The notes beneath the pieces were generated by a model, which ran no database searches, had not been told where the DNA came from, and saw only the letters and a program-made list of their open reading frames with translations. 64,000 nt of DNA from Bacillota bacterium. GTDB taxonomy: Bacteria; Bacillota; Limnochordia; Darwinibacteriales; JAAYFS01. The stretch is taken from contig JAAYFS010000055.1 in assembly GCA_012728115.1 (NCBI GenBank), positions 11,779 to 75,778 of the forward strand, written 5' to 3'. Position numbers and translations under genes: made by a program. This document shows, piece by piece, positions 5,923 through 60,947 of this stretch (position 1 is its first letter; every line of letters starts with the position of its first letter).

Positions 5923-7359
5923 ATGGAAGCAGTCTGGGAACAAAGGGTTAAAGAAGCAGTAAAGCAAAAAATCACTGGTAGAATTTTTTCCGCATTTAAT
6001 ACTAATATAGATGTAATTGTTCATTTGAACAAACAAATTATTAAACAATGGATAGACTCTACAGAAGGCTGTACTGTAGAGGCTTTAAATTCTATAGACG
6101 TAGATAACCTCGAAGTAGTAAGAGATAAATTAGATTTCTTAGCAGTTATTAAAGATTGTTTAGGGAAGGGTAAGAGCTTCTACATTGTACTAGAAGATCT
6201 CTCTTTATTCGATTGGCTGGAGGAGAATACTCCTGCACGCAGAGAAGAAATGGGTGGACAAGCAGGAATTATCGCCAACCAAATGGCTGCTCTCGATGCT
6301 ACATCGGTAGTATATACCTCGCTTCTGTCACAAAAGCAAGCTAATCTTTTCTTCCCTGAAGTATTGACACCAGTGATTGATGATAATGGCTTAAAACTTA
6401 ATCCAGTAATCGAAAGTGCAAACAAAGAAGATAGTACCAAGATTAACTGGATCTTTGAATATGCAAAAGGCATAGAATTTGACTTTGGTGGCGAAAAAGT
6501 AATCACCCCGAGAGCAAATCGCGTAATTCTCTCAACTCGTCCTGAAGGTGCAGTAATGACCTTTAAAGGACAGGTAGCTGACCACTTACCAGAGTTAGGG
6601 GAAAAGATCGATGTTGCTTTTATGGCTGGCTATCACTACTGTCCAACCGAAGAAAAAGCAATGCAAGAATACCTCACTGATTGTATTGAGGGGTTAAGAA
6701 AATTAAAACAAAACAATTCTAATCTGCATTTACACTTCGAATATGTGCCAATGAAGGATCAAGAAGCAGAAAAGAAAATGCTAACAGCAGTAGCTCAAGA
6801 AATTCAATCCTTCGGTATTAACGAAAACGAGATCAAAAGAGTACTAGCTGGATTTGGTTTCCAAAAAGAAGCGGACGAGATCGAGAAAGACGAAAGAGCA
6901 TTCTCCTTATACGAAGGGGCCTTAAGGATAATGGAGACTCTTGGTTTCGAACGAATCCAAGTTCATAATCTAGGTTACTATGTCTTAGTGCTCAAAAAAC
7001 CTTATCCAGTAGCCTTAGATCAGGTGCGAGCTTCTTGTCTCTATGCGTCAGCAGTAAATGCCATTAAGGCTAAGTACGGCGGATACGTAAAAGCAGAACA
7101 AGTAAAAGAAGCAGCTTCATTTGGTCTATCCACTATCGGAATCGAACAAATAAAAGGTTTTGAGGCTGAAATGAAGAGAAAAGGTATAGTTGTTCCTGAT
7201 AACTTCCTGGAAGAAGGAATAATAGAGTACGACAACCATTACCTAATGATTGTTCCTGCCCATGTAGTCCCCAATCCTATTAGTACTGTAGGAATGGGTG
7301 CTACCATCTCATCTTCTTCGTATGCTTGCGAATTCAGCTACGTTAGTCAAATGCGATAA
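5923..7359 (+). CDS. ADP-dependent glucokinase/phosphofructokinase-family (archaeal-type ribokinase-superfamily) homolog
   Basis: Motifs present: the NxNxD motif FNTNID, MGGQAGIIANQM, KQANLFF, and C-terminal PISTVGMGATISSSSYACEFS at the position of the GXGD motif. An intrinsic terminator follows. Confidence 0.55.
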   Translation: MEAVWEQRVKEAVKQKITGRIFSAFNTNIDVIVHLNKQIIKQWIDSTEGCTVEALNSIDVDNLEVVRDKLDFLAVIKDCLGKGKSFYIVLEDLSLFDWLEENTPARREEMGGQAGIIANQMAALDATSVVYTSLLSQKQANLFFPEVLTPVIDDNGLKLNPVIESANKEDSTKINWIFEYAKGIEFDFGGEKVITPRANRVILSTRPEGAVMTFKGQVADHLPELGEKIDVAFMAGYHYCPTEEKAMQEYLTDCIEGLRKLKQNNSNLHLHFEYVPMKDQEAEKKMLTAVAQEIQSFGINENEIKRVLAGFGFQKEADEIEKDERAFSLYEGALRIMETLGFERIQVHNLGYYVLVLKKPYPVALDQVRASCLYASAVNAIKAKYGGYVKAEQVKEAASFGLSTIGIEQIKGFEAEMKRKGIVVPDNFLEEGIIEYDNHYLMIVPAHVVPNPISTVGMGATISSSSYACEFSYVSQMR

Positions 7360-7367
7360 AGTTGGAA

Positions 7368-7396
7368 ACTGCGGGATGTCTCGCAGTTTTCTTTTG
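7368..7396 (+). terminator. intrinsic terminator after the ADP-kinase-like gene
   Basis: ACTGCGG-GATGTC-TCGCAGT followed by TTTTCTTTT. Confidence 0.65.
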
Positions 7397-7483
7397 TAGT
7401 TTGGAAAGGAATATTCACAAAGATTACCGAATTACATCAATGAGTTAAGTGAAAAGGGTTATCTTCCGTGGAGGGATGCCAAA

Positions 7484-8431
7484 GTGTTAAATGAACTGAA
7501 GATATTCTCGGGTAGAGCCCATCCTGAACTTGCCCGCGAGATTTGTTCAGTATTGCAGGTGGAAATAGGCCGTTCGGAAATTATAAAATTCACAAATGAT
7601 AATTCTTTTGTTCGGATTTATGAAAGTGTACGTGAAGCAGATGTTTACGTTGTTCAACCATCATGCGAACCTGTGAATGATGGGATTGTAGAACTTCTTA
7701 TCATGGTTGATGCCCTTCGGAGAGCATCGGTAAAACGAATAACTGCAGTTCTACCCTACTTTCCGTACGGAAGATCAGATAAAAAGGACCAACCGCGAAT
7801 TTCGATCACTGCAAGATTAATGGCAGATCTTCTGGAAGTCGCTGGTGTGGATAGAGTACTTTCTGTAGATTTACATGCACCCCAAATTCAGGGTTTCTTC
7901 AAGATCCCTGTAGACCATTTGACAGCAATTCCGATTTTTGCCGCTTATTTTCAAGAAAAGAATCTTTCCGATCTAGTAATAGTTGCTCCAGATGCTGGCA
8001 GAGCGAAAATGGCACGTCAATATGCCAGAAGACTTAACTGTCCGATGGCGATCATTGATAAGCGCAGAGTTGCTAACGAGGAAAAAGTGGTTATGGAAAG
8101 CGTAATGGGGGATGTCGAAGGTAAACGTTGTCTATTAGTCGATGATGAAATAAGCTCTGGTGCTTCGATAGTTGCTGCAGCAAATACCCTAGAGAAATTT
8201 GGTGCAGCAGAAATATATGCTGCGATTACGCACCCGATTCTTTCAGGAATGGCGCCACAGCGAATAGCATCGTCACCGATTAAGGAATTAGTGGTAACTA
8301 ATTCGGTTCCCGTACCCGAAGAGAAACGGAATGGGAAAATCAAAGTACTTAGCATTGCACCTTTACTAGGGGAAGCTATTTGGTGTATTCATAACGGGGT
8401 TTCAGTCAGTAAGGTTTTTGAGAAGGAATAA
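7484..8431 (+). CDS. prs: ribose-phosphate pyrophosphokinase
   Basis: Full-length PRPP synthetase pattern: FSGRAHPELA...DLHAPQIQGFF...PRT domain. Confidence 0.9.
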   Translation: MLNELKIFSGRAHPELAREICSVLQVEIGRSEIIKFTNDNSFVRIYESVREADVYVVQPSCEPVNDGIVELLIMVDALRRASVKRITAVLPYFPYGRSDKKDQPRISITARLMADLLEVAGVDRVLSVDLHAPQIQGFFKIPVDHLTAIPIFAAYFQEKNLSDLVIVAPDAGRAKMARQYARRLNCPMAIIDKRRVANEEKVVMESVMGDVEGKRCLLVDDEISSGASIVAAANTLEKFGAAEIYAAITHPILSGMAPQRIASSPIKELVVTNSVPVPEEKRNGKIKVLSIAPLLGEAIWCIHNGVSVSKVFEKE

Positions 8432-8905: not shown

Positions 8906-9685
8906 TTAAGACCGTTTGTATGCAGTAGGTACAGCTCGCTTATGGGCTGTAACTTTGTGGAGATGTTCGATCCTTTCCCGATCTTTGTCTGGGATCGGTT
9001 CTCCTTGTAAATATTTATCAATCATTTCATAGGTGGTTCCGATTTCAGCCTCATCAGTTTGCCCCTCCCAAAGGCCAGCAGAGGGGACTTTAGCTAAGAT
9101 TTCATCTGGGATGTTTAAAGCTTCAGCCAGCTTATATACCTCACCCTTGGTAAAATCGGCAAGGGGCAGAATATCGCAACCACCGTCACCGTACTTAGTA
9201 AAGTAGCCTGTATAAAGTTCGGCTGCGTTGTCGGTACCTACGACTAAGTAGTTTAAGAAATTAGCAACTGCATAAATAACAGACATACGTAAACGAGCAC
9301 GCAAATTGGCATCGGTCAGTTTAAGGATACTATCCTTAGTTGTAAATAACCCGATCTTTTTTAACTCATTGGATATTCCAGTTAAGATACTGGTGTGATC
9401 TTCGCTTAAATCGATTTCGAAACTAGTTAGACCGATTTTTTCGGCAACATCCCTTGCGTCAAGCGCATCTTGCGGATTAGAAAAGATGGGTATAATTACA
9501 CCAAGAGAGTGGTTCGGAAAGGCTTGTTTAATAAGGGCTGCAACCACAGCAGAATCGATTCCGCCACTGAGACCGACAACCAAACCTTGGCAATTTGCTT
9601 CTTTTACTCGATCTTGTAACCAATTAACTATATGTGGGATTTCGTTTGTGATATCCATTAATAATTCCTCCTGAAATAAATTCAA
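8906..9685 (-). CDS. nadE: NH3-dependent NAD+ synthetase
   Basis: The PP-loop motif GLSGGIDSAVV is present. The 259-aa size fits. Confidence 0.85.
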   Translation of the reverse strand: MNLFQEELLMDITNEIPHIVNWLQDRVKEANCQGLVVGLSGGIDSAVVAALIKQAFPNHSLGVIIPIFSNPQDALDARDVAEKIGLTSFEIDLSEDHTSILTGISNELKKIGLFTTKDSILKLTDANLRARLRMSVIYAVANFLNYLVVGTDNAAELYTGYFTKYGDGGCDILPLADFTKGEVYKLAEALNIPDEILAKVPSAGLWEGQTDEAEIGTTYEMIDKYLQGEPIPDKDRERIEHLHKVTAHKRAVPTAYKRS

Positions 9686-11556: not shown

Positions 11557-12333
11557 ATGGAATTCACTGTTTTAGATGCGATCGATATTCTCTTAGTTGC
11601 ATACATGATCTATCGACTTATGAATTTGATTCGCGGGACCAGAGCAACCACTTTAATTAAGGGACTAGCAATAATATTCGTCGCCAGTGTGGTCGCTCGT
11701 CTCTTTAATTTGAAAACTGTTAGTTGGCTTTTGGATCGAGGAACAACAGTGATTTTAGTTGCTCTCCCTGTAGTTTTTTACCCTGAACTTAGAAGAGCAC
11801 TTGAACAGATCGGGAAAGGGCAATTGTTTTCGCGCTTTAATGTAGCTTCACGTGCGGAGATCGACCAAACAGTTGAACAAATCGTTTCGGCGTGCGTAGG
11901 ATTAAGTGCAAGGCGGGTTGGGGCGTTAATAGCGATCGAGCGAGAAATTGGTTTACAAGAGTATGCTGATACAGGAATAAGGGTTGATGCCCTTGTTTCC
12001 AAAGAACTAATAAGCACTATTTTTGAACCGAAATCATTACTTCACGATGGCTCGGTGATTATTCGTGATGAAAGAATAGTTTCGGCTGCTTGTGTCCTGC
12101 CTCTGACTGAGAGACAAATAGATAAACGGCTTGGCACAAGGCATAGAGCTGCGGTTGGTCTAAGTGAGCAAACCGATGCTCTAATCGTAGTGGTTTCGGA
12201 AGAAACGGGAGTAATTTCCCTTGCTGTCGGTGGCCGTTTAATCCGATATTTAAATGAAAAACGCTTAAAAGAGTTATTGAATTATTATTGGCAAAGAATA
12301 AGCGACCATCCCTTTCGAAGGAGGGGTGAGTAA
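11557..12333 (+). CDS. cdaA: diadenylate cyclase CdaA (DisA_N domain, membrane-anchored)
   Basis: Three N-terminal TM helices are followed by a DAC domain (ALIAIEREIGL...HDGSVIIRD...TRHRAA). Confidence 0.85.
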   Translation: MEFTVLDAIDILLVAYMIYRLMNLIRGTRATTLIKGLAIIFVASVVARLFNLKTVSWLLDRGTTVILVALPVVFYPELRRALEQIGKGQLFSRFNVASRAEIDQTVEQIVSACVGLSARRVGALIAIEREIGLQEYADTGIRVDALVSKELISTIFEPKSLLHDGSVIIRDERIVSAACVLPLTERQIDKRLGTRHRAAVGLSEQTDALIVVVSEETGVISLAVGGRLIRYLNEKRLKELLNYYWQRISDHPFRRRGE

Positions 12334-12335
12334 GA

Positions 12336-12470
12336 AATGGCAAAATTCGGTAACCTAATTCGAGTTTCCTTTCGCAAACTTAAGAATATCATAAAAGATG
12401 AAACTCTTTACTTGCGCTTACTTGCCTTATTCTTAGCGATAGTTCTTTGGTTTTTGGCATCAAAAACTTA
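12336..12470 (+). CDS. 44-aa remnant of the CdaA regulator CdaR (YbbR), N-terminal TM helix only
   Basis: MAKFGNLIRVSFRKL...LRLLALFLAIVLWFLASKT* resembles the YbbR N-terminus. It sits between cdaA and glmM and has a GGAGG sequence upstream. Confidence 0.35.
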
Positions 12471-12508
12471 AGAGAACAGGGGGAATTTAATGTGGAGGTT
12501 GATTTAAA

Positions 12509-13846
12509 ATGACTAGACTATTCGGTACAGATGGAGTTCGAGGAGTAGCCAATGAAACACTCACACCAGAATTAGCGTTTAAACTAGGTCGGGCGGGTGC
12601 GGCAGTGCTAACAGAAGGTTCTTCACGCCCCAAGGTTGTGATCGGAAGGGACCCACGGATCTCGGGACAGATGCTCGAATCTGCTTTGATAAGTGGAATT
12701 ACTTCGATCGGTGCAGATGTTATTCTTCTCGGGGTGGTAACCACTCCTGCAGTAGCATACTTGACAAAGTATTTAAAAGCAGATGCTGGAGTTATGATCT
12801 CTGCATCGCACAATCCATACTATGATAATGGAATCAAATTTTTCTCTTCATCAGGATTCAAATTATCTGATGAGGTTGAAGACACGATTGAGCGGCTTTT
12901 AGATAGCCAGTTGCTTCCACGGGCGAAGGATGACAGAATTGGACGAGTTTACCCCTACAAAGAAGCTAATAGCCAATACCAAGACTTCTTAAAATCCTGT
13001 ATCGATTTTGACCTTAATGGAGTACATATCGCAATCGATTGTGCAAATGGTTCTAGCAGTGGGGTTGCTATTGAATTATTAAATTCCCTTGGAGCACGGG
13101 TATCTGTTTTTAACAATAATCCAAATGGACTTAATATCAATGTTAAATGTGGCTCAACTTATCCAGAGGCGATTCAAGAGTACGTCCAAAAGGTTGGTGC
13201 CGACCTTGGTTTAACCTTTGATGGAGATGCCGATCGTGTATTAGCTGTCGATGAGAAAGGACAGCTAATAGATGGAGATAAGATCTTAGCGATTTGTGGT
13301 CTAGCGATGCTAAGAGAAGGAACTTTGAAGAATAAAAAGATCGTTGCCACCGCGTATAGTAATGGTGGATTAATTCAGGTATTTAAGGAACATGGCGGCG
13401 ATGTGATCCTTGCTGGAGCAGGAGATAGGTATGTACTTGAAGCGATGCAAGAACATGATCTAGTTTTAGGAGGTGAGCAATCGGGCCATATCATTTTTTT
13501 AGAGCATAGCACAACTGGTGATGGTTTATTAACCGCTCTAATGCTTCTTTCTGTTTTCAAAAAAAGCGGGAAACCACTTAGTGAACTAGCTGAGGTTATG
13601 CCAGAATATCCGCAGATTTTAGTAAATGTTAGAGTGAGCTCGAAAGAAGGATGGGAGGAAAATCCTAGAATTCAACAAGCTCTCGGAGAGGCAGAAAAAG
13701 AATTAGGCTCACAAGGGCGATTGTTTGTAAGAGCATCGGGAACCGAACCACTCATTCGGATCATGGGTGAGCATCCAGATAAAGAAGTTGTAGAAAAAGT
13801 TGTCGATGCTGTTGCTTCCGTTGTCCGAACAGAACAGGGGGTATAA
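12509..13846 (+). CDS. glmM: phosphoglucosamine mutase
   Basis: MTRLFGTDGVRG and the phosphoserine loop SASHNPYYDNGIKFF are present. Confidence 0.9.
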   Translation: MTRLFGTDGVRGVANETLTPELAFKLGRAGAAVLTEGSSRPKVVIGRDPRISGQMLESALISGITSIGADVILLGVVTTPAVAYLTKYLKADAGVMISASHNPYYDNGIKFFSSSGFKLSDEVEDTIERLLDSQLLPRAKDDRIGRVYPYKEANSQYQDFLKSCIDFDLNGVHIAIDCANGSSSGVAIELLNSLGARVSVFNNNPNGLNINVKCGSTYPEAIQEYVQKVGADLGLTFDGDADRVLAVDEKGQLIDGDKILAICGLAMLREGTLKNKKIVATAYSNGGLIQVFKEHGGDVILAGAGDRYVLEAMQEHDLVLGGEQSGHIIFLEHSTTGDGLLTALMLLSVFKKSGKPLSELAEVMPEYPQILVNVRVSSKEGWEENPRIQQALGEAEKELGSQGRLFVRASGTEPLIRIMGEHPDKEVVEKVVDAVASVVRTEQGV

Positions 13847-13850
13847 GTTT

Positions 13851-15605
13851 ATGTCGGGTATTATCGGATATTTGGGAGAACAAGAAGCTTTTTCAAAAAT
13901 ATTAGCTGGACTAAAAAAACTTGACGATCGAGGATATGATTACACAAAGATCTCAGTCCTCAATCAGGGTAAGCTACAGCACGATAGTTTCGGTGGCTTG
14001 CTAGCAAATGGTCAAGATAGCAATAACTTAACTGGTTCGGTCGGCGTAGGTATTACCACATGGCAAACTCATCGCAGGCTAGTTACTGATGGAACAGAAA
14101 AGTTTACTGTAGTTCAGAATGGTTTCATTGAGCACCAAAGCGTAGATGGTAATGACACAGTCGGTTCTACAATTACTCATTTGCTCGAAGAAAATTACCG
14201 AGAAAATGATGCTATCTCAATTAATCGAGCTATTCAGCAATTAAACGGCGCATTTGCACTAATAGTGATTCATTCTAATCATCCCGAGCAACTTTTTGTC
14301 GGTTGCCAAAAAAGTCCGTTGCTGATTGGCAGAAGCGTAGATGGAGTTTTCGTAGTAAATGATTTTAAAGCACTACCTTCGACCATAGAAGAAGTATATA
14401 TTCTCAATAGCGGAGAAACAGGAATTCTTTCCTTAAATCAGTGTGAATTTTTTGATCAAGACCTAAAACCGATTGAGAAAACAGCCTTAAAATTAATTGA
14501 TAATCAAGAGTTAGTTACGAAATTAGGGTTCGACCACTTTATGTTAAAAGAGATTTGTGAACAACCACAGGCGCTTCAGGACACTGTCCAGGCATGTTTA
14601 AGAGAAAAAGATGGGGAATTCCTGGTTGATCCAAATTTGAAACTATCGCTGACGGATGTAAAAAAGATTCACATTCTTGGCATGGGTACAGCAAGACATG
14701 CAGGACTTTTGGGCAAGGATTTAATTGAAAAAATCTTACGAATACCAGTTGAAGTTCACTTTGGCTCTGAGTTTGCTTATAGCGATCCGATCGTGAATGA
14801 AGATCATCTAACTATCGTAATCAGCCAATCTGGTGAAACCGCTGATACTTTGGCGGGATTACGTGAAGCGAAGCGAAAGGGTTCACGAATTTTAGCGATT
14901 ACGAATGTGATAGGTAGTTCGATCGCTAGAGAAGCAGATGATGTGTTCTATACTCTTGCTGGTCGAGAAATAGCGATCGCATCAACTAAGGCGTATCTTG
15001 CACAAATTACCGCTTTGCTTATGATCACGCTCTACGTTGCTCAACAACAGAAGATTAAAATAGACCAGGAACTATTAAAGGATCTCCTTAGAATACCTTC
15101 CATCTTGAGTAGATTCATCGATGAGTTTAAAGATTTCGCCAAAGATCTTGCCAATAGGCTGAAAGATGAACGCAATATCTTTTATCTTGGTCGGGGACTC
15201 GATTATGCTGTTGTTGCGGAAGGATGCTTAAAATTAAAAGAAACCACCTATATCCACGCGGAAGCCTATTCTGCAGGCGAGTTTCGTCACGGAACGATCG
15301 CCTTAGTTGAAGAAGGTTTTCCAGTGATTTCGGTAGCTTGTACCCCTCAAGTTCATGATAAGCTTGTCAAAAACTTGGAGGAAGTTAAGGAACGAGGTGC
15401 ATTCCTAACAGTACTAACCACAAGCGATACCTTGGCCCTTAAGAATCTAGCAGATCAATTTTACGTACTACCTGTAGTAAATGATCTTCTTACCCCTCTG
15501 ATCAGTGTGGTAGCACTACAACTGATCGCATATCACACCGCGTTGGCAAAAGGAAATGACGTTGATAAGCCACGCAATTTAACAAAGAGTATCACTTCGG
15601 AGTGA
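13851..15605 (+). CDS. glmS: GlmS-family protein (glutamine-fructose-6-phosphate aminotransferase homolog). The isomerase (SIS) domains are intact; the N-terminal glutaminase domain is degenerate, with Cys1 replaced by Ser.
   Basis: It starts MSGIIGY where MCGIVGY is expected. The SIS motifs SQSGETADTL, TKAY, HAEAY..GE..HG and the C-terminal DVDKPRNLTKS are conserved. RBS GGGGG precedes the ATG. Confidence 0.8.
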   Translation: MSGIIGYLGEQEAFSKILAGLKKLDDRGYDYTKISVLNQGKLQHDSFGGLLANGQDSNNLTGSVGVGITTWQTHRRLVTDGTEKFTVVQNGFIEHQSVDGNDTVGSTITHLLEENYRENDAISINRAIQQLNGAFALIVIHSNHPEQLFVGCQKSPLLIGRSVDGVFVVNDFKALPSTIEEVYILNSGETGILSLNQCEFFDQDLKPIEKTALKLIDNQELVTKLGFDHFMLKEICEQPQALQDTVQACLREKDGEFLVDPNLKLSLTDVKKIHILGMGTARHAGLLGKDLIEKILRIPVEVHFGSEFAYSDPIVNEDHLTIVISQSGETADTLAGLREAKRKGSRILAITNVIGSSIAREADDVFYTLAGREIAIASTKAYLAQITALLMITLYVAQQQKIKIDQELLKDLLRIPSILSRFIDEFKDFAKDLANRLKDERNIFYLGRGLDYAVVAEGCLKLKETTYIHAEAYSAGEFRHGTIALVEEGFPVISVACTPQVHDKLVKNLEEVKERGAFLTVLTTSDTLALKNLADQFYVLPVVNDLLTPLISVVALQLIAYHTALAKGNDVDKPRNLTKSITSE

Positions 15606-30927: not shown

Positions 30928-30953
30928 TTGTAGCAGTGAGAGGAGGTCGCAAT

Positions 30954-33784
<2,831 letters not shown>

Positions 33785-38765: not shown

Positions 38766-40340
38766 ATGATGATGAGAAAACCGATCGTATTGGTGGTAAT
38801 GGACGGTATTGGGAAGGGCAAAGGGGATTTTAGTGATGCTGTTAGTTTAGCCAATACACCCACTCTCGATATGTTAATGACTAATTATCCAAACATCTTA
38901 ATTAAGGCACATGGTACTGCTGTCGGGTTACCTTCTGATGCTGATATGGGAAACAGCGAAGTAGGGCATAACGCGTTGGGATGCGGACAAATCTATTCTC
39001 AAGGAGCGAAGTTAGTAAATGAAAGTATTGAAAGAGGAGAAATCTTTGAATCTGATGTTTGGCATGAAGTGATCTCAAATTGTCTTAACAATAATTCCAT
39101 CTTACATTTTATCGGACTTTTATCTGATGGGAATGTTCACTCGAATATCAATCACTTAAAGTCGATGATCATCAAAGCCAAAGAAAGCAATGTAACCAAA
39201 GTCAGGGTTCATATTCTACTCGATGGTCGTGATGTTCCAGCTACTTCTGCTCTTGAATACGTTGATGATCTAGAAAGCCTGCTTGCAGAACTTAATTGCG
39301 ATAACTTCGATGCTCGCATAGCCTCTGGTGGAGGTAGGATGAAAATTACGATGGATAGATATCAAGCAAACTGGGATATGGTAAGACTAGGTTGGGAAAC
39401 GCATGTGCTTGGTGAGGGTAGACAGTTTACTTCTGCTCTTGAGGCTATCAAGTCGTATCGCGAGGAATTTAACGTGATCGATCAAGATCTTCCGCCTTTT
39501 GTGATCGCTGAAAATGGAAATCCTGTTGGAAGAATGAATGATGGCGATAGCGTAATCTTTTTTAATTTCCGTGGTGATCGGGCAATTGAAATAAGTATTG
39601 CCTTCGACTATCAAGATTTTGATAAATTTGATCGGAAGTATGTTCCAAAGGTGGTTTACGCAGGGATGCTTCAGTATGATGGAGACATCAATGTTCCCAA
39701 GAAATATCTTGTTAGTCCGCCAAACATCAAAAACACCTTGTCAGAGCTATTGGTGGAACATAGGATAAAGCAATATGCTGTATCGGAGACCCAAAAGTAT
39801 GGGCATATGACCTACTTTTGGAATGGAAATAGGAGTGGAAAGTTTAGCGATGAGCTGGAAGTGTTTTATGAAGTACCATCGGATCAGGTGCCTTTTGAAC
39901 AGCGTCCTTGGATGAAAGCAGCAGAAATAACTGATAAAGTAATTGAAGCGATTGAATCGGGAGAATACGGCTTCATCCGTTGTAATTATCCAAACGGTGA
40001 TATGGTAGGGCATACTGGCAACATTGATGCGACAATTATCGGTGTAGAAGCAGTTGACTTAGGTTTGGCAAGAATACTAGAGGCTGTCACCAAAAAAGAT
40101 GCAATCCTAATTGTAACAGCTGATCATGGCAATGCGGATGATATGGTAGAGATTGATAAATCGGGGAATCTGCAAATGAAAACCGCTCATTCGCTGAACC
40201 CCGTACCTTTTATTATCTTTGACAAAAACAAGGCATACAGTATTAAACCAGGTAATTATGGACTCGCGAACGTAGCTCCCACCATCGCTCGCTTATTCAA
40301 TCTAGACATACCAAAGCATTGGGAGGAGAGTATGGTATAG
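38766..40340 (+). CDS. second, divergent 2,3-bisphosphoglycerate-independent phosphoglycerate mutase paralog
   Basis: The 524-aa protein has iPGM motifs (VLVVMDGIG, NSEVGH, LLDGRDV, ADHGNADDM). It is far more divergent than the operon copy at 30954..32498. Confidence 0.8.
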   Translation: MMMRKPIVLVVMDGIGKGKGDFSDAVSLANTPTLDMLMTNYPNILIKAHGTAVGLPSDADMGNSEVGHNALGCGQIYSQGAKLVNESIERGEIFESDVWHEVISNCLNNNSILHFIGLLSDGNVHSNINHLKSMIIKAKESNVTKVRVHILLDGRDVPATSALEYVDDLESLLAELNCDNFDARIASGGGRMKITMDRYQANWDMVRLGWETHVLGEGRQFTSALEAIKSYREEFNVIDQDLPPFVIAENGNPVGRMNDGDSVIFFNFRGDRAIEISIAFDYQDFDKFDRKYVPKVVYAGMLQYDGDINVPKKYLVSPPNIKNTLSELLVEHRIKQYAVSETQKYGHMTYFWNGNRSGKFSDELEVFYEVPSDQVPFEQRPWMKAAEITDKVIEAIESGEYGFIRCNYPNGDMVGHTGNIDATIIGVEAVDLGLARILEAVTKKDAILIVTADHGNADDMVEIDKSGNLQMKTAHSLNPVPFIIFDKNKAYSIKPGNYGLANVAPTIARLFNLDIPKHWEESMV

Positions 40341-53299: not shown

Positions 53300-54709
53300 T
53301 TACTTAGCGCTTAATCTACGTTTTGATGAAAGGAGCTCTTCGGTCGATGCAGTCCTTCTAAAGAAATCCAGAGCAGGTAGATTTTCTAAAGTCTCCAGAT
53401 AATCTGCCTGCTTCGCATGCTTGTTTACATAATTAGCACCGAGGCTACTATCGATCAATGTTCCAGGTCCGCCGACGCATCCATTGATACACGCCATCCC
53501 TTCCATGAAATTTGCTTTTAACATTCCAGCTAACCTTTGTTTTAGTAGTTCATTACATTCCTTGATTCCATTACCTCTAACGGCTACTATCTTACATTCA
53601 GGATCAATACCTTGAACTGCTCTTTTTATTGCTTGGGTAACCCCGCCAGTGTGAGCAAATATTCTTCCATCATGTGAAGCATTGCTTAACGATATTTCAG
53701 GCATAGTATTCAAATTTCCTATGTCGCTAACTTCAAAAATCAAACTCATTTCTTTATAAGTTAACACGCAATCTATTGCACCTTTCATATCAGGAAGTTT
53801 ACTTTCTCCTTTTTTGGCGGTGCACGGACCAATAAAGACCACACGGCAATCAGGTTCACTTCTTTTAAGTAATCTACCAAGAGCAATCATCGGCGATACC
53901 GAATTCGAGACAACTGCGGTGAGTGAAGGGAGAGTTATTTCAATCAAACGCATAAAAGCTGGACAGCAACAGGAAGTGATCATAAAAGGGTCCTGACTAT
54001 GGTAGCGTTCAACAAATTCTTTTGCTTCCAAAGTTGTGATTATATCTGCCGCCATAGCAACTTCATATACGTCAGAAAACCCAAGGATTTTCAATGCCCC
54101 AACAATCTGTTCGGGAGTAATTCCTGGTCCAAATTGTCCAACAAAGGAAGGAGCAAGAATAGCATAAATACTTTCGCCAGTGCTCGCATTAAAAAGAAGT
54201 TGAGCAACTTTCGCGATATCAGATCGTTCAGCTAACACTCCACCGATACAGGCATGTACACAATACCCACATTCAATGCAGTAGTCTTCGTTGATTATTC
54301 TAATTCCTTCATCGTTAATTTTGATCGCGTTGGTCGGGCAAGCTCTTTCGCAATCGCTCGGCGAATCACAATCGGTACAAGGTTTTAAAAATTTTACCAG
54401 GGGTGGTTTAACATCAGCGACATCAGTTTCTTCGAATAAGAAGTTTAAGTAATTCTTTGCAATTTCAATTTGGTCGTCGATGTGGCCATCGATTTGATCT
54501 CGCGCTTGCTCATTAAATTGTTTTTTAAACTGCGCTTCGTCTGCGTTTTGATTTCTGCCCTGATCTTCGCACTGATTATTGGCATTACTATCAGTGTAAA
54601 AACATTTCTGCAGAATATCATTGATCAATTCTTCTTTACTCTTTGTACTGCCGTTTTTGATCTCCCTGATTACGTGGAGAAGAAGGCGTTCCGAAAATGG
54701 ATTTGGCAT
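53300..54709 (-). CDS. [FeFe]-hydrogenase-like protein (H-cluster domain plus two 4Fe-4S ferredoxin motifs) with an acidic Q/D/E-rich N-terminal region
   Basis: Ferredoxin motifs CERACPTNAI and CIECGYCVHAC. H-cluster-like motifs TSCCCPAF (L1), FIGPCTAKKGE (L2) and EGMACINGCVGGPG (L3). ATG at 54709 follows GAGGTGA. Confidence 0.6.
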   Translation of the reverse strand: MPNPFSERLLLHVIREIKNGSTKSKEELINDILQKCFYTDSNANNQCEDQGRNQNADEAQFKKQFNEQARDQIDGHIDDQIEIAKNYLNFLFEETDVADVKPPLVKFLKPCTDCDSPSDCERACPTNAIKINDEGIRIINEDYCIECGYCVHACIGGVLAERSDIAKVAQLLFNASTGESIYAILAPSFVGQFGPGITPEQIVGALKILGFSDVYEVAMAADIITTLEAKEFVERYHSQDPFMITSCCCPAFMRLIEITLPSLTAVVSNSVSPMIALGRLLKRSEPDCRVVFIGPCTAKKGESKLPDMKGAIDCVLTYKEMSLIFEVSDIGNLNTMPEISLSNASHDGRIFAHTGGVTQAIKRAVQGIDPECKIVAVRGNGIKECNELLKQRLAGMLKANFMEGMACINGCVGGPGTLIDSSLGANYVNKHAKQADYLETLENLPALDFFRRTASTEELLSSKRRLSAK

Positions 54710-54788
54710 TTTATCACCTCGATGTTTGTTTTGGTCAAATGATTGAGAAAAAAATAACAATATGCTATAATGCTAGTGCTGGTGAATC

Positions 54789-57350: not shown

Positions 57351-58224
57351 ATTTTGGAACTACCACTGAAACAGCTTTTGGCATTAACTTTGCGTTCATC
57401 GGGGTTGAACTACGTAAATCCCCATCAAACATCTTCGGTAGTACCAAATCCGATTCGATTGTCACTTCTCGACCTTCGTAAAAAGAGCAAGCGGGATTGT
57501 TCACATGTTTGCCAAAATACACCCTGGGCAATGTCCATAGCAAACGAGGTTTAGAGATCTCATTAATCACAAGGATAGTAAACTTACCATCATCATACCT
57601 AGCTTCTGGTGCAAATTTCAAACCTCCGCCACCATAAGGCATATTCATCAGGAAAACACCAATAGTTGAAGTTTCAAAACTCTTACCATCGATAGTAATT
57701 TTAACGTGATGAATTGGAAGCAGGCGAATCGTTTGGAAGGTAGCGACTAGGATCGCTGGGGATCCACGAAGTAATCCGTCGCGATGCCGATTGACATAAT
57801 CGATAACGGACACTGGAAATCCGACCGAAGCTAGCACTCCAAATACTTTGTCGGATTCTAAGCCAACATCCATTTTTGTAAATCTTGGATTAAGGATGGT
57901 TTCCAACGCTTTGTTATAATCACGAGGTATACCAAGACCTCTTGCGTAATCATTACCCGTACCAGCAGGAATAATACCAAGAGAACTTTTTGTATTGTAT
58001 ACTCCTTCTAATACCTCGCCGATTGTTCCATCTCCACCGAGGGCACATACAATCTCGTGTTTTTCTGCTGCTTTATGTGCCAACTCAATGGCCTCTCTTG
58101 AGCGAGTAGTAAAAATAAATTCAAAATCGGCATTCTTACTAGCTAGTTGAGCACGTACTTCTTCTCCGACTTTTTTTCCGCGACCTCTTCCTGCCAGAGG
58201 ATTAGCGATTACGGCAAGACTCAT
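57349..58224 (-). CDS. diacylglycerol kinase-family lipid kinase (YegS/DagK/BmrU)
   Basis: The DAGK_cat motif (IANPLAGRGRG...ALGGDGTIGEV) is present. Length is 291 aa. Confidence 0.8.
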   Translation of the reverse strand: MSLAVIANPLAGRGRGKKVGEEVRAQLASKNADFEFIFTTRSREAIELAHKAAEKHEIVCALGGDGTIGEVLEGVYNTKSSLGIIPAGTGNDYARGLGIPRDYNKALETILNPRFTKMDVGLESDKVFGVLASVGFPVSVIDYVNRHRDGLLRGSPAILVATFQTIRLLPIHHVKITIDGKSFETSTIGVFLMNMPYGGGGLKFAPEARYDDGKFTILVINEISKPRLLWTLPRVYFGKHVNNPACSFYEGREVTIESDLVLPKMFDGDLRSSTPMNAKLMPKAVSVVVPK

Positions 58225-58299: not shown

Positions 58300-59097
58300 T
58301 TATCCTAATTTTCCTTCACGAGATTTAGAAATATAGTTTAGGCAATATTCATCTTTACCCAATAAAGCTTCGGTAGCCCAAATGCTGATCATTAATTGAT
58401 TATCAAGCGGGTTGAGGATTGCACCGTCCATTCCCGCCGCCATAGCAGCCACCAAAAAGGCTTGATTAATGTATTTGCGTGAAGGCAGCCCATAAGAGAT
58501 ATTACTTAGTCCACATGCGATATGCACTTCAGGGAAAAGCCTTTTTACTTCCCTCATAGTCTCAAGCGCTACTACGCCAAAATGTGAACCAGTGCCGATC
58601 GGTTGAACCATCGGATCGATAAAGATATCATCACTAGCAACACCTTTTTGGGTTAGATCATTGATTAAACTCCCAGCGATCTTGACTCGTTTTTCAGCGG
58701 TTTCAGGCATTCCTGAATCATCCATACACAGGGCAATAACTCGTGTTTTGTATTCTAATACTAACGGAAGAATGCTATTAAACCGTTCTTTCTCATAAGA
58801 AATCGAATTAATGATCGGAGTGCCGTTACGATTGTGTTTTAAAGCTTTCTCAATCGCAACTGGATTTGGTGAATCGATCGACAATGGGGCATTGACCGCA
58901 GTTTGAACAACTTCAGTTAACCATGCTAATTTCTCAGGTTCGTCCTTTTCGAAAACTCCAGCATTAATATCTATATAATTAGCGCCAGCCTCAAATTGAG
59001 TTTTTGCTAAATTGGCGATCACTAATTCATCCATTTGAGCTATTGCACTATGAACTTCTTTGATCGAGCTATTAATCTTTTCGCCAATAATGATCAT
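58300..59097 (-). CDS. pterin-binding methyltetrahydrofolate:corrinoid methyltransferase-like protein (AcsE/MtrH family)
   Basis: IIGEKINSS plus a DHPS-like TIM barrel (GANYIDINAG, NSISYEK). The ATG at 59097 follows AAGGAGTG. The frame extends to GTG 59106. Confidence 0.6.
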   Translation of the reverse strand: MIIIGEKINSSIKEVHSAIAQMDELVIANLAKTQFEAGANYIDINAGVFEKDEPEKLAWLTEVVQTAVNAPLSIDSPNPVAIEKALKHNRNGTPIINSISYEKERFNSILPLVLEYKTRVIALCMDDSGMPETAEKRVKIAGSLINDLTQKGVASDDIFIDPMVQPIGTGSHFGVVALETMREVKRLFPEVHIACGLSNISYGLPSRKYINQAFLVAAMAAGMDGAILNPLDNQLMISIWATEALLGKDEYCLNYISKSREGKLG

Positions 59098-59267
59098 TAT
59101 AAACACTCCTTCAAGGATTTAATTACGGGTATTATAGCTTAAGTACCAATAATATTCAAGATTTTGCCAGAAACGATTGATTAAATTGGTTTTATAAATT
59201 AATATTTAAGTTGGGGTTAAAAAAGTTAACGTTTATGTTTAACCAATAATTAAAGGAGGCACAAAGA

Positions 59268-60947
59268 ATGGCAATTAAGACTGATATTGAAATCGCCCAA
59301 GAGGTGGAAATGAAACCGATTCAGGAAGTGGCTAGTTCGATCGGTATAAGCGATGATCGCTTGGAATTGTATGGAAAATACAAAGCTAAGGTCGATTACA
59401 ATATCTTAAAAGACAAGCAGAATGAGCCAGATGGAAAGCTAATCTTAGTTACCGCCATTAATCCTACTGCTGCGGGCGAAGGGAAGACCACAGTTACGGT
59501 TGGTCTCGGTGACGCACTAAACCAGCTAGGTAAAAAAGTCATGATTGCCTTGCGTGAACCATCAATGGGACCAGTTTTTGGCGTGAAAGGTGGAGCAGCG
59601 GGTGGTGGATATGCCCAAGTTGTTCCGATGGAAGATATTAACCTTCACTTCACGGGAGATATGCACGCGATCAGTGCAGCTAACAATCTTTTAGCCGCAA
59701 TGCTCGATAACCATATCTATCAAGGAAATCAATTAAATATCGATGTTAGAAGAATTACATGGAAACGCGTTGTTGATATGAACGATCGTCAATTACGTGG
59801 TATAGTGAATGGTTTGACTGGAAGAGTTAATGGAGTGCCTCGTGAAGATGGTTTTGATATCACGGTGGCTTCAGAAGTAATGGCTATTCTTTGCCTTGCG
59901 AGTGATATTGATGATCTGAAAGAACGACTCGGTCGTATCGTTGTCGGTTATACCTATGATGAACAACCTGTGACCGCAAAAGATCTTAAAGCTAATGGTG
60001 CTATGGCTGCGCTTTTAAAAGACGCTCTCAAACCAAATCTTGTTCAAACCTTAGAACATACCCCAGCCTTTGTCCATGGCGGCCCATTTGCTAATATTGC
60101 TCATGGTTGTAATAGTTTGATGGCTACCAAGATGGCTTTGAAGTTAGCGGATTACGTTGTTACCGAAGCGGGATTTGGTGCTGATTTAGGTGCAGAAAAA
60201 TTCCTCGACATTAAATGTCGTTTTGGTGGACTAACTCCAAGTGCTGTAGTAATTGTAGCTTCGATTCGGGCGCTTAAGAACCATGGCGGAGTAGCCAAGG
60301 ATAAATTAGGCGAAGAGAATCTGGAAGCCCTTAAGAATGGTATGCCAAACTTAATTAAACATATTGAAAACATTACGCAAAACTTTGGTTTACCTGCAGT
60401 AGTTGCTATCAATAGATTCCCAACTGATACCGAAGCTGAAATTAAGCTTGTTGAAGAACTTTGTCAGCAACAAGGTGTGAACGTTGCCTTGACCGAAGTT
60501 TGGGCGAAGGGTGGCGCTGGTGGAGTCGAACTGGGCAAGGAAGTACTCCGGTTAATCGACGAGGGCAAGAATGAGTTTAAGTTCACCTATGGTGATAGTC
60601 TCTCGATTAGAGAAAAGATTGAAACCATAGCAAAGAAGGTCTACGGCGCCGATGGAGTAGACTTTGTTGGAACCGCGGGCAAAGAAATTGATAAGATCGA
60701 GGAAATGGGTTTTGGTAACCTACCTATTTGTATGGCTAAAACTCAATACTCCTTATCGGATGATCCAACGAAGCTCGGACGTCCGAGTGGATTTAGAATT
60801 AGTGTCAGAAACGTAAAAGTATCCGCTGGCGCTGGATTTGTTGTCGCATTGACAGGTACCATTATGACTATGCCTGGTTTACCAAAAGTCCCAGCTGCCG
60901 AACGAATCGACGTTGATTCAACAGGAAAGATTTCAGGACTATTCTAA
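59268..60947 (+). CDS. fhs: formate-tetrahydrofolate ligase
   Basis: [11 protein letters not shown]..., the P-loop TPAGEGKTT, and full length of 559 aa. Confidence 0.9.

Follow-up and report, generated by a model that had tools for sequence, protein, structure and literature searches.

Glucosamine-6-phosphate synthase, GlmS (EC 2.6.1.16; structures 1JXA, 2J6H and 4AMV), carries out the first committed step to UDP-N-acetylglucosamine (UDP-GlcNAc), hence to peptidoglycan, and is an antibiotic target. Its N-terminal cysteine has been treated as absolute, to the point of serving as the basis for a genetic selection, and deletion of the Cys codon of Escherichia coli glmS or its change to Ala abolishes complementation (PMC11822699). 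Here we analyse a GlmS-family protein encoded in a 64,000-nucleotide stretch of a Bacillota genome from the Limnochordia (positions 11,779 to 75,778 of contig JAAYFS010000055.1, assembly GCA_012728115.1; this whole stretch is called the window below). In this housekeeping-locus GlmS the glutamine-hydrolysing site has been dismantled, while the site that binds fructose 6-phosphate (Fru6P), forms the imine and isomerises it has been kept. A search of the available literature found no description of a natural GlmS that lacks the Cys nucleophile or has a degenerate glutaminase domain.

With canonical GlmS the window protein shares the two-domain fold, the residues Lys485, Glu488, His504 and Lys603, the phosphate loop and the glmM-glmS locus (labels such as Lys485, Glu488 or Arg73 follow the numbering of E. 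coli GlmS; K461, E464, I376 and the like are positions in the window protein). It is, however, 25 residues shorter, is without Cys1, Arg73, the His86 loop, His71, His97, the DSAG block, a match to GATase profiles and a glmS ribozyme, and carries the substitutions V399I, A602T, V605I and V607S at the exit of the ammonia channel. The C1A mutant of E. coli GlmS (3OOJ), which is the top fold match, likewise keeps the domain and lacks the nucleophile, but this mutant and those with the Cys codon deleted or changed to Ala are laboratory variants unable to support growth (PMC11822699), whereas the window gene is a natural one at a housekeeping locus and has many more changes.

The C-terminal half is also homologous to the glucosamine 6-phosphate (GlcN6P) deaminases NagB-II (Shewanella 3HBA and 8EOL, the latter matched at E 9e-33) and archaeal GlmD, which need no glutaminase to use or release free ammonia (PMC10201695). 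From the NagB-II catalytic Ser/Glu/His set (GlmS positions 303, 347, 488 and 504) the window protein keeps S347, E488 and H504, and at position 303 it has Ala, as do 284 of 331 canonical GlmS. These deaminases, which are allosterically activated by N-acetylglucosamine 6-phosphate, are single double-SIS proteins of ~330 aa that occur in a catabolic context; they have no N-domain and the match to them stops before the C-tail, in contrast to the 584 aa of the window protein with its GlmS-type N-domain of 222 aa. The retention of an N-terminal nucleophile (Ntn) domain without its Cys has a parallel in the AsnB-derived beta-lactam synthetase and carbapenam synthetase, whose C-terminal synthetase is active. 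Those enzymes belong to another family and chemistry and gained a new reaction, whereas the window gene stands in its ancestral locus with its partner genes unchanged.

A glmS gene with serine in place of the nucleophile

The gene starts with an ATG (13851-13853), ahead of which lies a Shine-Dalgarno sequence, AGGGGG, at 13836-13841, and its product begins MSGIIGY. The first-pass annotation of this DNA had read the second codon, TCG, as Ser in the place of Cys, and we agree with it. It had also allowed for an upstream in-frame start giving MCG, and for a sequencing error at codon 2, and neither applies: the only in-frame start upstream of 13851 is a TTG at 13800, inside glmM, which yields MSMLLLPLSEQNRGYKF-MSG without Cys, and the MSGIIGY start is identical in independent assemblies. 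The TCG codon is moreover two steps away from TGY (Cys).

The metagenome-assembled genome (MAG) protein NLY11650.1 at NCBI ('Firmicutes/Bacillota bacterium') is identical to the window GlmS, and full-length copies of glmS in the ENA assemblies ERZ18327520 and ERZ2647963 differ from it by 1-2 substitutions; the MSGIIGY start is common to the three full-length copies, to the ENA fragment P0122 and to the JGI contig L178. As strain variants, the window and the contigs L001 and L082 are 99.76-99.89% identical, the glmS gene having 0 synonymous and 1-2 non-synonymous differences. An artefact of sequencing, assembly or gene calling has next to no chance of explaining the protein, being ruled out by the recurrence of the same sequence in independent assemblies and samples; many coordinated substitutions, two in-frame deletions and the lack of an alternative Cys start speak against it as well.

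Assignment to the family is based on profile, alignment and fold. The window protein scores 529.4 bits against the NCBIfam GlmS model TIGR01135 (curated cut-off 418.05) and 540.5 bits against NF001484 (cut-off 381), and its alignment with E. coli GlmS (4amv), at E 1e-97 and 34% identity, spans the full length. An AlphaFold2 model, with a predicted local distance difference test score (pLDDT) of 82.8, shows the two-domain GlmS fold of an Ntn sandwich and a double SIS, with the strands and helices of the N-domain predicted; the input alignment consisted of 73 canonical homologues, and the model is hence biased towards the canonical fold. Foldseek ranks E. coli GlmS and human GFAT-1 as its best matches (E 1e-45 to 1e-47).

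Degeneration of the glutaminase site

Alignment with E. coli GlmS and 330 canonical GlmS sequences gave 78 columns conserved at 98% or more, 36 in the N-domain and 42 in the C-domain, which we refer to as near-invariant (the sets of canonical GlmS used for comparison ranged from 119 to 330 sequences). The window protein deviates at 16 of the 36 N-domain columns. Besides C1S, it has Asp for Tyr25, Tyr for Ser30 and Lys for Gly32, and the DSAG block, which the first-pass annotation had given as lost, reads DYTK. The replacement of GIGHTRWATHG, which it had also noted, is to GVGITTWQTHR by alignment, with the changes H71I, R73T, A75Q and G78R; the loss of Arg73 that it had expected is thus borne out by alignment, both to E. 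coli GlmS and to sets of 119 to 330 canonical sequences. The 80-88 loop is deleted and Asn84, His86 and Pro87 have gone with it, His97 is Gln, Asn103, Glu125 and Ser191 are also lost, and ~13 residues after NGxIE are missing. The equivalent of Asp123 is ambiguous, being D102 in one alignment and V104 in another, where it was counted as lost. Retained are Gly2, Ile3, Arg26-Gly27-Tyr28-Asp29, Thr72, Trp74, Thr76, His77, Asn98 and Gly99, so the earlier expectation that the oxyanion residues too would be gone was mistaken.

The glutamate pocket of human GFAT-1 is made up of the equivalents of Arg73, Trp74, Thr76, His77, His86 and Gly99 (PMC7000685). In the window protein Arg73 and His86 of the glutamine pocket are gone and Thr76, His77, Asn98 and Gly99 are present. 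No match to Pfam GATase_6 or GATase_7 was obtained even at E 0.1, the two SIS domains being all that is seen, and the median identity of the N-domain to canonical GlmS is 35%, compared with 48% for E. coli GlmS against the same set. An exhaustive search with the N-domain alone revealed no close relative, the top match being at 105 bits and 35-38% identity. In the AlphaFold2 model the core of the N-domain is folded, and pLDDT is low at residues 73-75 (the former Q-loop), residues 96-103 (a deleted segment) and the C-tail. With Cys1 and the pocket residues Arg73 and His86 all gone, the glutaminase site is very probably non-functional, and the earlier prediction that the protein would be unable to hydrolyse glutamine in the canonical way is well supported by the alignments and by the missing GATase match.

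The residues by which the N-domain meets the rest of the protein have fared differently. In GFAT structures the C-loop is stabilised by the residues corresponding to Tyr28 and Trp74, and those corresponding to Tyr25 and Arg26 hydrogen bond to its backbone (PMC7000685). The window protein has thus lost the nucleophile, Arg73 and His86 and retained most of the residues by which the N-domain docks onto the C-tail.

It might be asked whether Ser1 itself, once the initiator Met is removed, acts as the N-terminal nucleophile of an enzyme that still uses glutamine or another amide, as in the Ser-type Ntn hydrolases. A Met-Ser start permits that removal, the protein keeps Thr606, Trp74, the oxyanion-hole residues Asn98 and Gly99 and possibly Asp123, and there are natural Ser1 lineages with a fully canonical glutamine site (L161/L184, see below), so Ser1 may work in some GlmS. 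We nevertheless consider this very unlikely for the window protein, in which the pocket is gone (R73T, H71I, H97Q, the His86 loop deleted, the Q-loop rewritten and DSAG lost), no GATase profile matches and the confidence of the model is lowest exactly at the pocket segments.

The isomerase domain and the C-terminal tail

The C-terminal half presents another picture. The first-pass annotation had taken the two SIS domains to be intact, as Pfam confirms, and 37 of the 42 near-invariant columns are kept, among them Lys485, Glu488, His504, Lys603 (K579), Thr606, Ser401 and the phosphate loop SQSGET (S325-T330, equivalent to S347-T352); the roles of the catalytic residues Lys485, Glu488 and His504 are taken from PMC9272926 and PMC7000685. 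Isolated isomerase-domain structures match the C-domain with a template modelling score of ~0.9 and a root mean square deviation of ~2.5 Å, and its identity to canonical GlmS is 50%, compared with 45.5% for E. coli GlmS. The five deviations are V399I, K503R, A602T, V605I and V607S, and all but K503R lie at the sugar site or in the C-tail. The region of the C-terminal catalytic Lys, also described earlier as intact, is so with respect to Lys603 and Thr606 but not to its neighbours, since A602T, V605I and V607S are changes at columns conserved at 98% or more. Neither Ile at position 399 nor Thr at 602 occurs in any of the 330 canonical GlmS.

Val399, Ala602 and Val605 are listed as lining the isomerase active site (PMC9272926), and in hGFAT2 the equivalents of Ala602 and Leu601 contact that of Trp74, which with residues of the C-tail forms the ammonia channel (PMC7948480). 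As far as the sequence goes, the lining of this channel in the window protein thus keeps Trp74 and Leu601 and is altered by A602T and V605I. The changes in the C-domain appear to be non-random in their placing, and the asymmetry between the domains (20 of 36 as against 37 of 42 columns kept) would not be expected from decay of the whole gene. Calibration against GlmM gives the same impression: a canonical pair whose GlmM are 54% identical has 57% identity in the GlmS N-domain and 61% in the C-domain, whereas at 52% GlmM identity the values for the window protein are 30% and 47%, so that both halves are accelerated, the N-domain far more.

An intact isomerase site deprived of its nitrogen supply would default to converting Fru6P to glucose 6-phosphate, and such phosphoglucose-isomerase-like activity of the isomerase domain is documented as a side reaction of GlmS and GFAT (PMC7948480). 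That the window protein has become an enzyme of this kind strikes us as very unlikely indeed: the turnover is low (0.32 per min in hGFAT2; PMC7948480), the Schiff-base Lys603, the C-tail and the coupling to glmM are all retained, and the context offers no hint of such a role.

Ser1 homologues of GlmS in environmental sequences

To place the Ser1 substitution in a wider frame, metagenomes were scanned with the pattern ATG-TCN-GGN-ATH-NTN-GGN followed by 60 unspecified bases and RGYD codons, which returned at least 120 matches. The first-pass annotation had called the N-terminal Cys invariant, and this does not hold for GlmS homologues, since in most of these matches the glutamine site is otherwise intact; environmental data repeatedly contradict the textbook view of Cys1 as invariant. 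Among the matches listed, most belong to a clade from Terriglobia/Acidobacteriia of 620-645 aa with inserts, 85-100% identical to each other and annotated as GlmS (L085:2216-4102 (-), L084-L203 generally, and L204-L206:8001-9875). Like the window protein they have Ser for Cys1 and the GlmS name; unlike it they keep the whole glutamine pocket, and Glu488 is replaced by Lys, with S347T in addition. In their neighbourhood are genes for PIG-L, histone-deacetylase-family (Hist_deacetyl) and YdjC deacetylases in place of glmM or glmU, and the clade is probably a distinct, uncharacterised paralogue family. Elsewhere, L161/L184 (610 aa) have Ser1 with everything else canonical, and L116/L126/L157 (605 aa), L131, L125 and L112 have Ser1 and one extra change (Q348E, K485L, H71D/H86Q or N98K).

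In the Terriglobia clade Val399 and Ala602 are canonical, and the same is true of the Ser1 lineages whose glutamine site is intact. With Ser1 beside an intact pocket so common elsewhere, Ser1 by itself is not diagnostic; what appears to mark the window GlmS is Ser1 combined with loss of the glutamine pocket and the changes at 399 and 602.

A second lineage without a glutamine pocket

The N-domain search turned up two other proteins beginning MSG, of which one, P0155, is a 601-aa GlmS from a Limnochordia MAG (locus L083). It carries C1S, R73Y, H77N, H97Y, a shortened 80-88 loop, DGAG for DSAG, and I489T, the last of which is also present in the window protein. P0155 is less decayed than the window protein, in that it still matches the GATase Pfam models, does not have the 13-aa deletion and keeps both cdaR and a glmS ribozyme. 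The gene order at L083, cdaA-cdaR-glmM-glmS-acpS-nnr-alr, is as in the window locus, the cdaR slot being filled by a 324-aa YbbR-domain gene instead of the 44-aa open reading frame (ORF) of the window, and a ribozyme of 98.7 bits lies between glmM and glmS (7373-7526), not decayed although the N-domain is.

The two proteins do not appear to have inherited these features together. The nearest relatives of P0155, at 55-56% identity, are all canonical MCG proteins, and in a neighbour-joining tree of the isomerase domain it groups with canonical Limnochordia Cys1 GlmS in 195 of 200 bootstraps and as sister to the window GlmS in only 3 of 200; the window GlmS forms a long branch in this tree, and its exact placement is not fixed. 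The Ser codon is AGC in P0155 and TCG in the window gene, and because these two families of Ser codons interconvert only via a non-Ser codon, codon and tree together lead us to reject common ancestry and indicate that the glutaminase site was most likely lost independently in the two lineages.

Despite this, the changes coincide. Nine near-invariant N-domain columns deviate in both proteins (C1, Y25, S30, R73, A75, N84, H86, P87 and H97), and the only C-domain deviations of P0155 are V399I and A602T, identical to those of the window GlmS and found in 0 of 330 canonical GlmS. The overlap of positions alone has a hypergeometric p of ~0.012 in each domain. As Val399 and Ala602 are canonical where the pocket is intact, the V399I/A602T pair would track the loss of the glutamine pocket and not Ser1 itself.

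The other protein found by this search, P0225, is a 243-aa fragment and a third GlmS N-domain starting MSG with a degenerate pocket (GIGQTHSENDG; H97L, N98S).

A possible ammonia-dependent synthase

The function that we favour for the window GlmS, with a probability that we place somewhat short of even, is that of a glutamine-independent GlcN6P synthase which uses free ammonia and has kept its N-domain as a lid; what we infer here is where the nitrogen comes from, in which direction the reaction runs and that the N-domain acts as a lid. Fru6P would bind to the SIS domains and form a Schiff base with Lys579 (Lys603) as in GlmS, nitrogen would be supplied as free NH3/NH4+ and not from glutamine, by the chemistry that the SIS-only NagB-II and GlmD run in reverse, and Glu464 (Glu488) and His480 (His504) would complete the isomerisation to GlcN6P, to be taken on by the coupled GlmM. 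The N-domain would be a structural lid rather than a catalyst, with Arg26, Tyr28 and Trp74 ordering the C-tail over the sugar site, a role suggested by the retention of these residues and of Asn98, Gly99 and Thr606 together with the recurrence of V399I and A602T. More speculatively, ammonia might enter by way of the gutted glutamine pocket and the channel exit as remodelled by V399I, A602T, V605I and V607S.

That GlcN6P could still be made is suggested by the SIS-only NagB-II, which runs the same chemistry with free ammonia on the same Ser/Glu/His set (PMC10201695). The reaction Fru6P + NH4+ = GlcN6P is reversible with a K of ~0.2 M (PMC11593775), and overexpression of NagB can replace GlmS in E. 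coli (PMC11822699). The first-pass annotation had offered an ammonia-using synthase, a GlcN6P deaminase and a regulatory pseudo-amidotransferase as alternatives. It is the first of these that the data appear to favour, on account of the coupling to glmM, the peptidoglycan genes of the window and the Ser1 analogue behind a glmS ribozyme; a catabolic deaminase and a pure pseudoenzyme are less favoured. The stop codon of glmM and the start of glmS are separated by a spacer of 4 nt (13847-13850), and the two genes are thus translationally coupled, which would provide a downstream pull on the product. Present in the window are murD, murI, alr and a gene for a cell-wall amidase; the organism would therefore make peptidoglycan and need UDP-GlcNAc. 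At L083, where the mRNA remains under GlcN6P-triggered self-cleavage, the control suits a producer of GlcN6P and not a consumer.

The same residues and the same chemistry, as seen in the SIS-fold deaminases (PMC10201695), would equally serve a catabolic GlcN6P deaminase of the NagB-II type carrying a vestigial N-domain, the more so as deamination is the thermodynamically favoured direction (PMC11593775) and does not require the glutaminase half. We regard such an enzyme as rather unlikely. Coupling links glmS to glmM, a biosynthetic gene; neither nagA nor a transporter for amino sugars or a nag regulator was found in the 64-kb window or in the extra 3' sequence reached; the window protein scores 159.7 bits against NF046059 and 86.6 bits against NF041128, where the cut-offs are 430 and 580; and the ribozyme at L083, which destroys the mRNA at high GlcN6P, would control a catabolic enzyme in the wrong sense.

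As the main alternative, the window protein would be a relic or pseudoenzyme that is drifting or has a non-catalytic role, for example in the CdaA-GlmM-GlmS/GlmR network; GlcN6P would then be supplied by another, canonical GlmS, by NagB or by the scavenging of N-acetylglucosamine or glucosamine. We hold this to be unlikely, though several points favour it: both domains of GlmS are accelerated relative to GlmM, the module seems to be eroding, with the ribozyme lost and cdaR truncated, only ~70 kb of the genome are covered, and persistence of GlmS homologues in which both catalytic residues are replaced is seen in the large Terriglobia clade. What tells against it is that all the catalytic residues are included among the 37 of 42 near-invariant isomerase columns kept, that glmS holds a housekeeping position coupled to glmM, that V399I and A602T recur unchanged in an independent lineage, which speaks for selection at the sugar/ammonia site and against drift, and that the analogue P0155 retains a full-strength ribozyme.

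Several points weigh against the ammonia-dependent synthase. Canonical GlmS is described as unable to take ammonia as donor (PMC9272926), so a gain of ammonia access would be required for the proposed function. Beyond the ~70 kb covered, the genome may encode another canonical glmS, a nagB or a salvage route for amino sugars, in which case this copy could be dispensable or otherwise employed. The isomerase domain is faster-evolving than expected (47% compared with 61% in the canonical pair at equal GlmM divergence), and the loss of the glmS ribozyme and the cdaR stub both fit a general erosion of the module. With more than 99.7% identity among all known copies, purifying selection acting on the N-domain is not measurable. 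The convergence is based on two lineages, and an ammonia-rich habitat is something that we suspect from the accession series.

The wider proposal is of a natural class of glutamine-independent GlmS, in which at least two Bacillota lineages independently dropped glutamine hydrolysis, kept a dead Ntn lid, fixed V399I and A602T at the junction of channel and sugar site and rely on an ammonia-dependent synthase as their sole route to UDP-GlcNAc; this we put forward tentatively, as a conjecture that could well be wrong. If true, an amidotransferase reputed to refuse ammonia becomes an ammonia-dependent GlcN6P synthase. A housekeeping GlmS without a glutaminase, arising twice independently with the same two substitutions, makes the existence of such enzymes testable, along with the residues that gate the access of ammonia and the reason for keeping a non-catalytic glutaminase domain. 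Annotation pipelines label all such proteins, the Terriglobia Ser1/Lys488 clade included, as 'glutamine--fructose-6-phosphate transaminase', and metabolic reconstructions built on names may be wrong in consequence.

The locus and its neighbourhood

The cdaA-glmM-glmS context described in the first-pass annotation is as stated, with cdaA and glmM present at the locus (Table 1). Between them, the 44-aa ORF looks like only the N-terminal membrane anchor of cdaR, the YbbR-domain regulator of CdaA. No glmS ribozyme was found near glmM-glmS at E up to 1, and the 4-nt spacer leaves no room for one; in canonical relatives the ribozyme scores 110 bits (Dethiobacter, L002, 11362-11515) and 89 bits (Symbiobacterium, L005, 12361-12520).

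Table 1. Coordinates of the glmS gene, its landmarks and the genes preceding it in the window
Feature	Position	Strand	Basis
glmS-family ORF, 584 aa	13851..15605, stop codon included (stop 15603-15605)	+	NCBIfam profiles, end-to-end alignment, AlphaFold2 fold
Second codon (TCG, Ser), where canonical GlmS has the Cys1 nucleophile	13854..13856	+	sequence; same codon in independent assemblies
Degenerate N-terminal Ntn glutaminase-type domain, residues 1 to ~222	13851..14516	+	no Pfam GATase match; 16/36 near-invariant columns deviate
Q-loop remnant I68-T-T70-W71-Q-T-H-R75 (E. coli H71-T-R73-W74-A-T-H-G78)	14052..14075	+	alignment; Arg73 lost, Trp74 kept
Isomerase/synthase domain, two SIS repeats and C-tail	14517..15602	+	Pfam SIS twice (E 4e-50); 37/42 near-invariant columns kept
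I376 = E. coli Val399 (V399I)	14976..14978	+	alignment
Catalytic block K461/E464/H480 = E. coli Lys485/Glu488/His504, all kept; I489T and K503R inside block	15231..15290	+	alignment
C-tail L-T578-K579-S-I581-T-S583-E; Lys603 and Thr606 kept, A602T/V605I/V607S changed	15579..15602	+	alignment
cdaA (diadenylate cyclase), which opens the conserved module	11557..12333	+	CdaA_N and DAC domains
44-aa ORF at the cdaR position	12337..12471	+	sequence MAKFGNLIRVSFRKLKNIIKDETLYLRLLALFLAIVLWFLASKT; resembles N-terminal membrane anchor only
glmM (phosphoglucosamine mutase)	12509..13846, stop TAA 13844-13846	+	PGM_PMM I-IV

The order of genes upstream of the module is DeoC, a methyltransferase, a kinase of the ADP-dependent phosphofructokinase/glucokinase family, phosphoribosyl pyrophosphate synthetase, an NH3-type NadE (259 aa), an aminotransferase and a HAD hydrolase, from which it continues with cdaA, the 44-aa ORF, glmM, glmS, acpS, nnr and alr. 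Further 3' are YvcK/CofD, VanW, whiA, cggR-gap-pgk-tpi-pgm-eno, tmRNA, smpB and the cell-wall amidase, as well as a GerM-like gene, murI, murD, and genes for an Fe-hydrogenase, formate-tetrahydrofolate ligase and a pterin-binding CdhD-like protein. A 115-kb ENA contig extends a few kb past the 3' end of the window and gives FtsW/RodA and trigger factor; neither a nagB nor a second glmS was found in the window or in this extension. Among ten 'Firmicutes/Bacillota bacterium' GlmS clusters, the sole NLY accession, NLY76447.1, lies too far from NLY11650.1 for the two to share a MAG.

Nothing in species-representative genomes exceeds 52-56% identity to the window GlmM, and CdaA and GlmM are closest to the Limnochordia locus; from these comparisons the lineage appears to be a deep-branching one within Bacillota. 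Horizontal transfer of the locus was considered and rejected, the GC content being uniform across it at ~0.39-0.44.

Some further genes of the window deserve mention. The kinase noted above (5923-7359 (+)) is a 478-aa member of the ADP-specific phosphofructokinase/glucokinase family (PF04587, E 8e-67), a family that is mostly archaeal and unusual for Bacillota. The NAD synthetase (8906-9685 (-)) is of the short type, which is ammonia-dependent: its 259 aa hold the NAD_synthase domain only, without a glutaminase domain. There are two genes for cofactor-independent phosphoglycerate mutase (iPGM_N and Metalloenzyme domains), at 30936-32498 (+) and 38766-40340 (+), of which one is within the gap-pgk-tpi-pgm-eno operon and the second is solitary beside the tmRNA gene. 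The large subunit of an Fe-only hydrogenase (53300-54760 (-)), the pterin-binding CdhD-like protein (58300-59106 (-)) and formate-tetrahydrofolate ligase (59268-60947 (+)) suggest an anaerobic lifestyle of the Wood-Ljungdahl type, acetogenic or syntrophic acetate-oxidising. The NLY/NLN/NLM accession series leads us to suspect an origin in an anaerobic digester. This would agree with the Wood-Ljungdahl genes, the hydrogenase and a habitat rich in ammonia.

Finally, a DAGK-like protein of the window (57352-58224) is identical to one on the 542-kb contig FZPS01000134.1 (L209; GCA_900198705.1). After the DAGK-like gene the same families follow there (NMT1, ABC ATPase and a shorter permease gene) and the surrounding genes are entirely different, which points to a mosaic assembly or to a relative with rearrangements.

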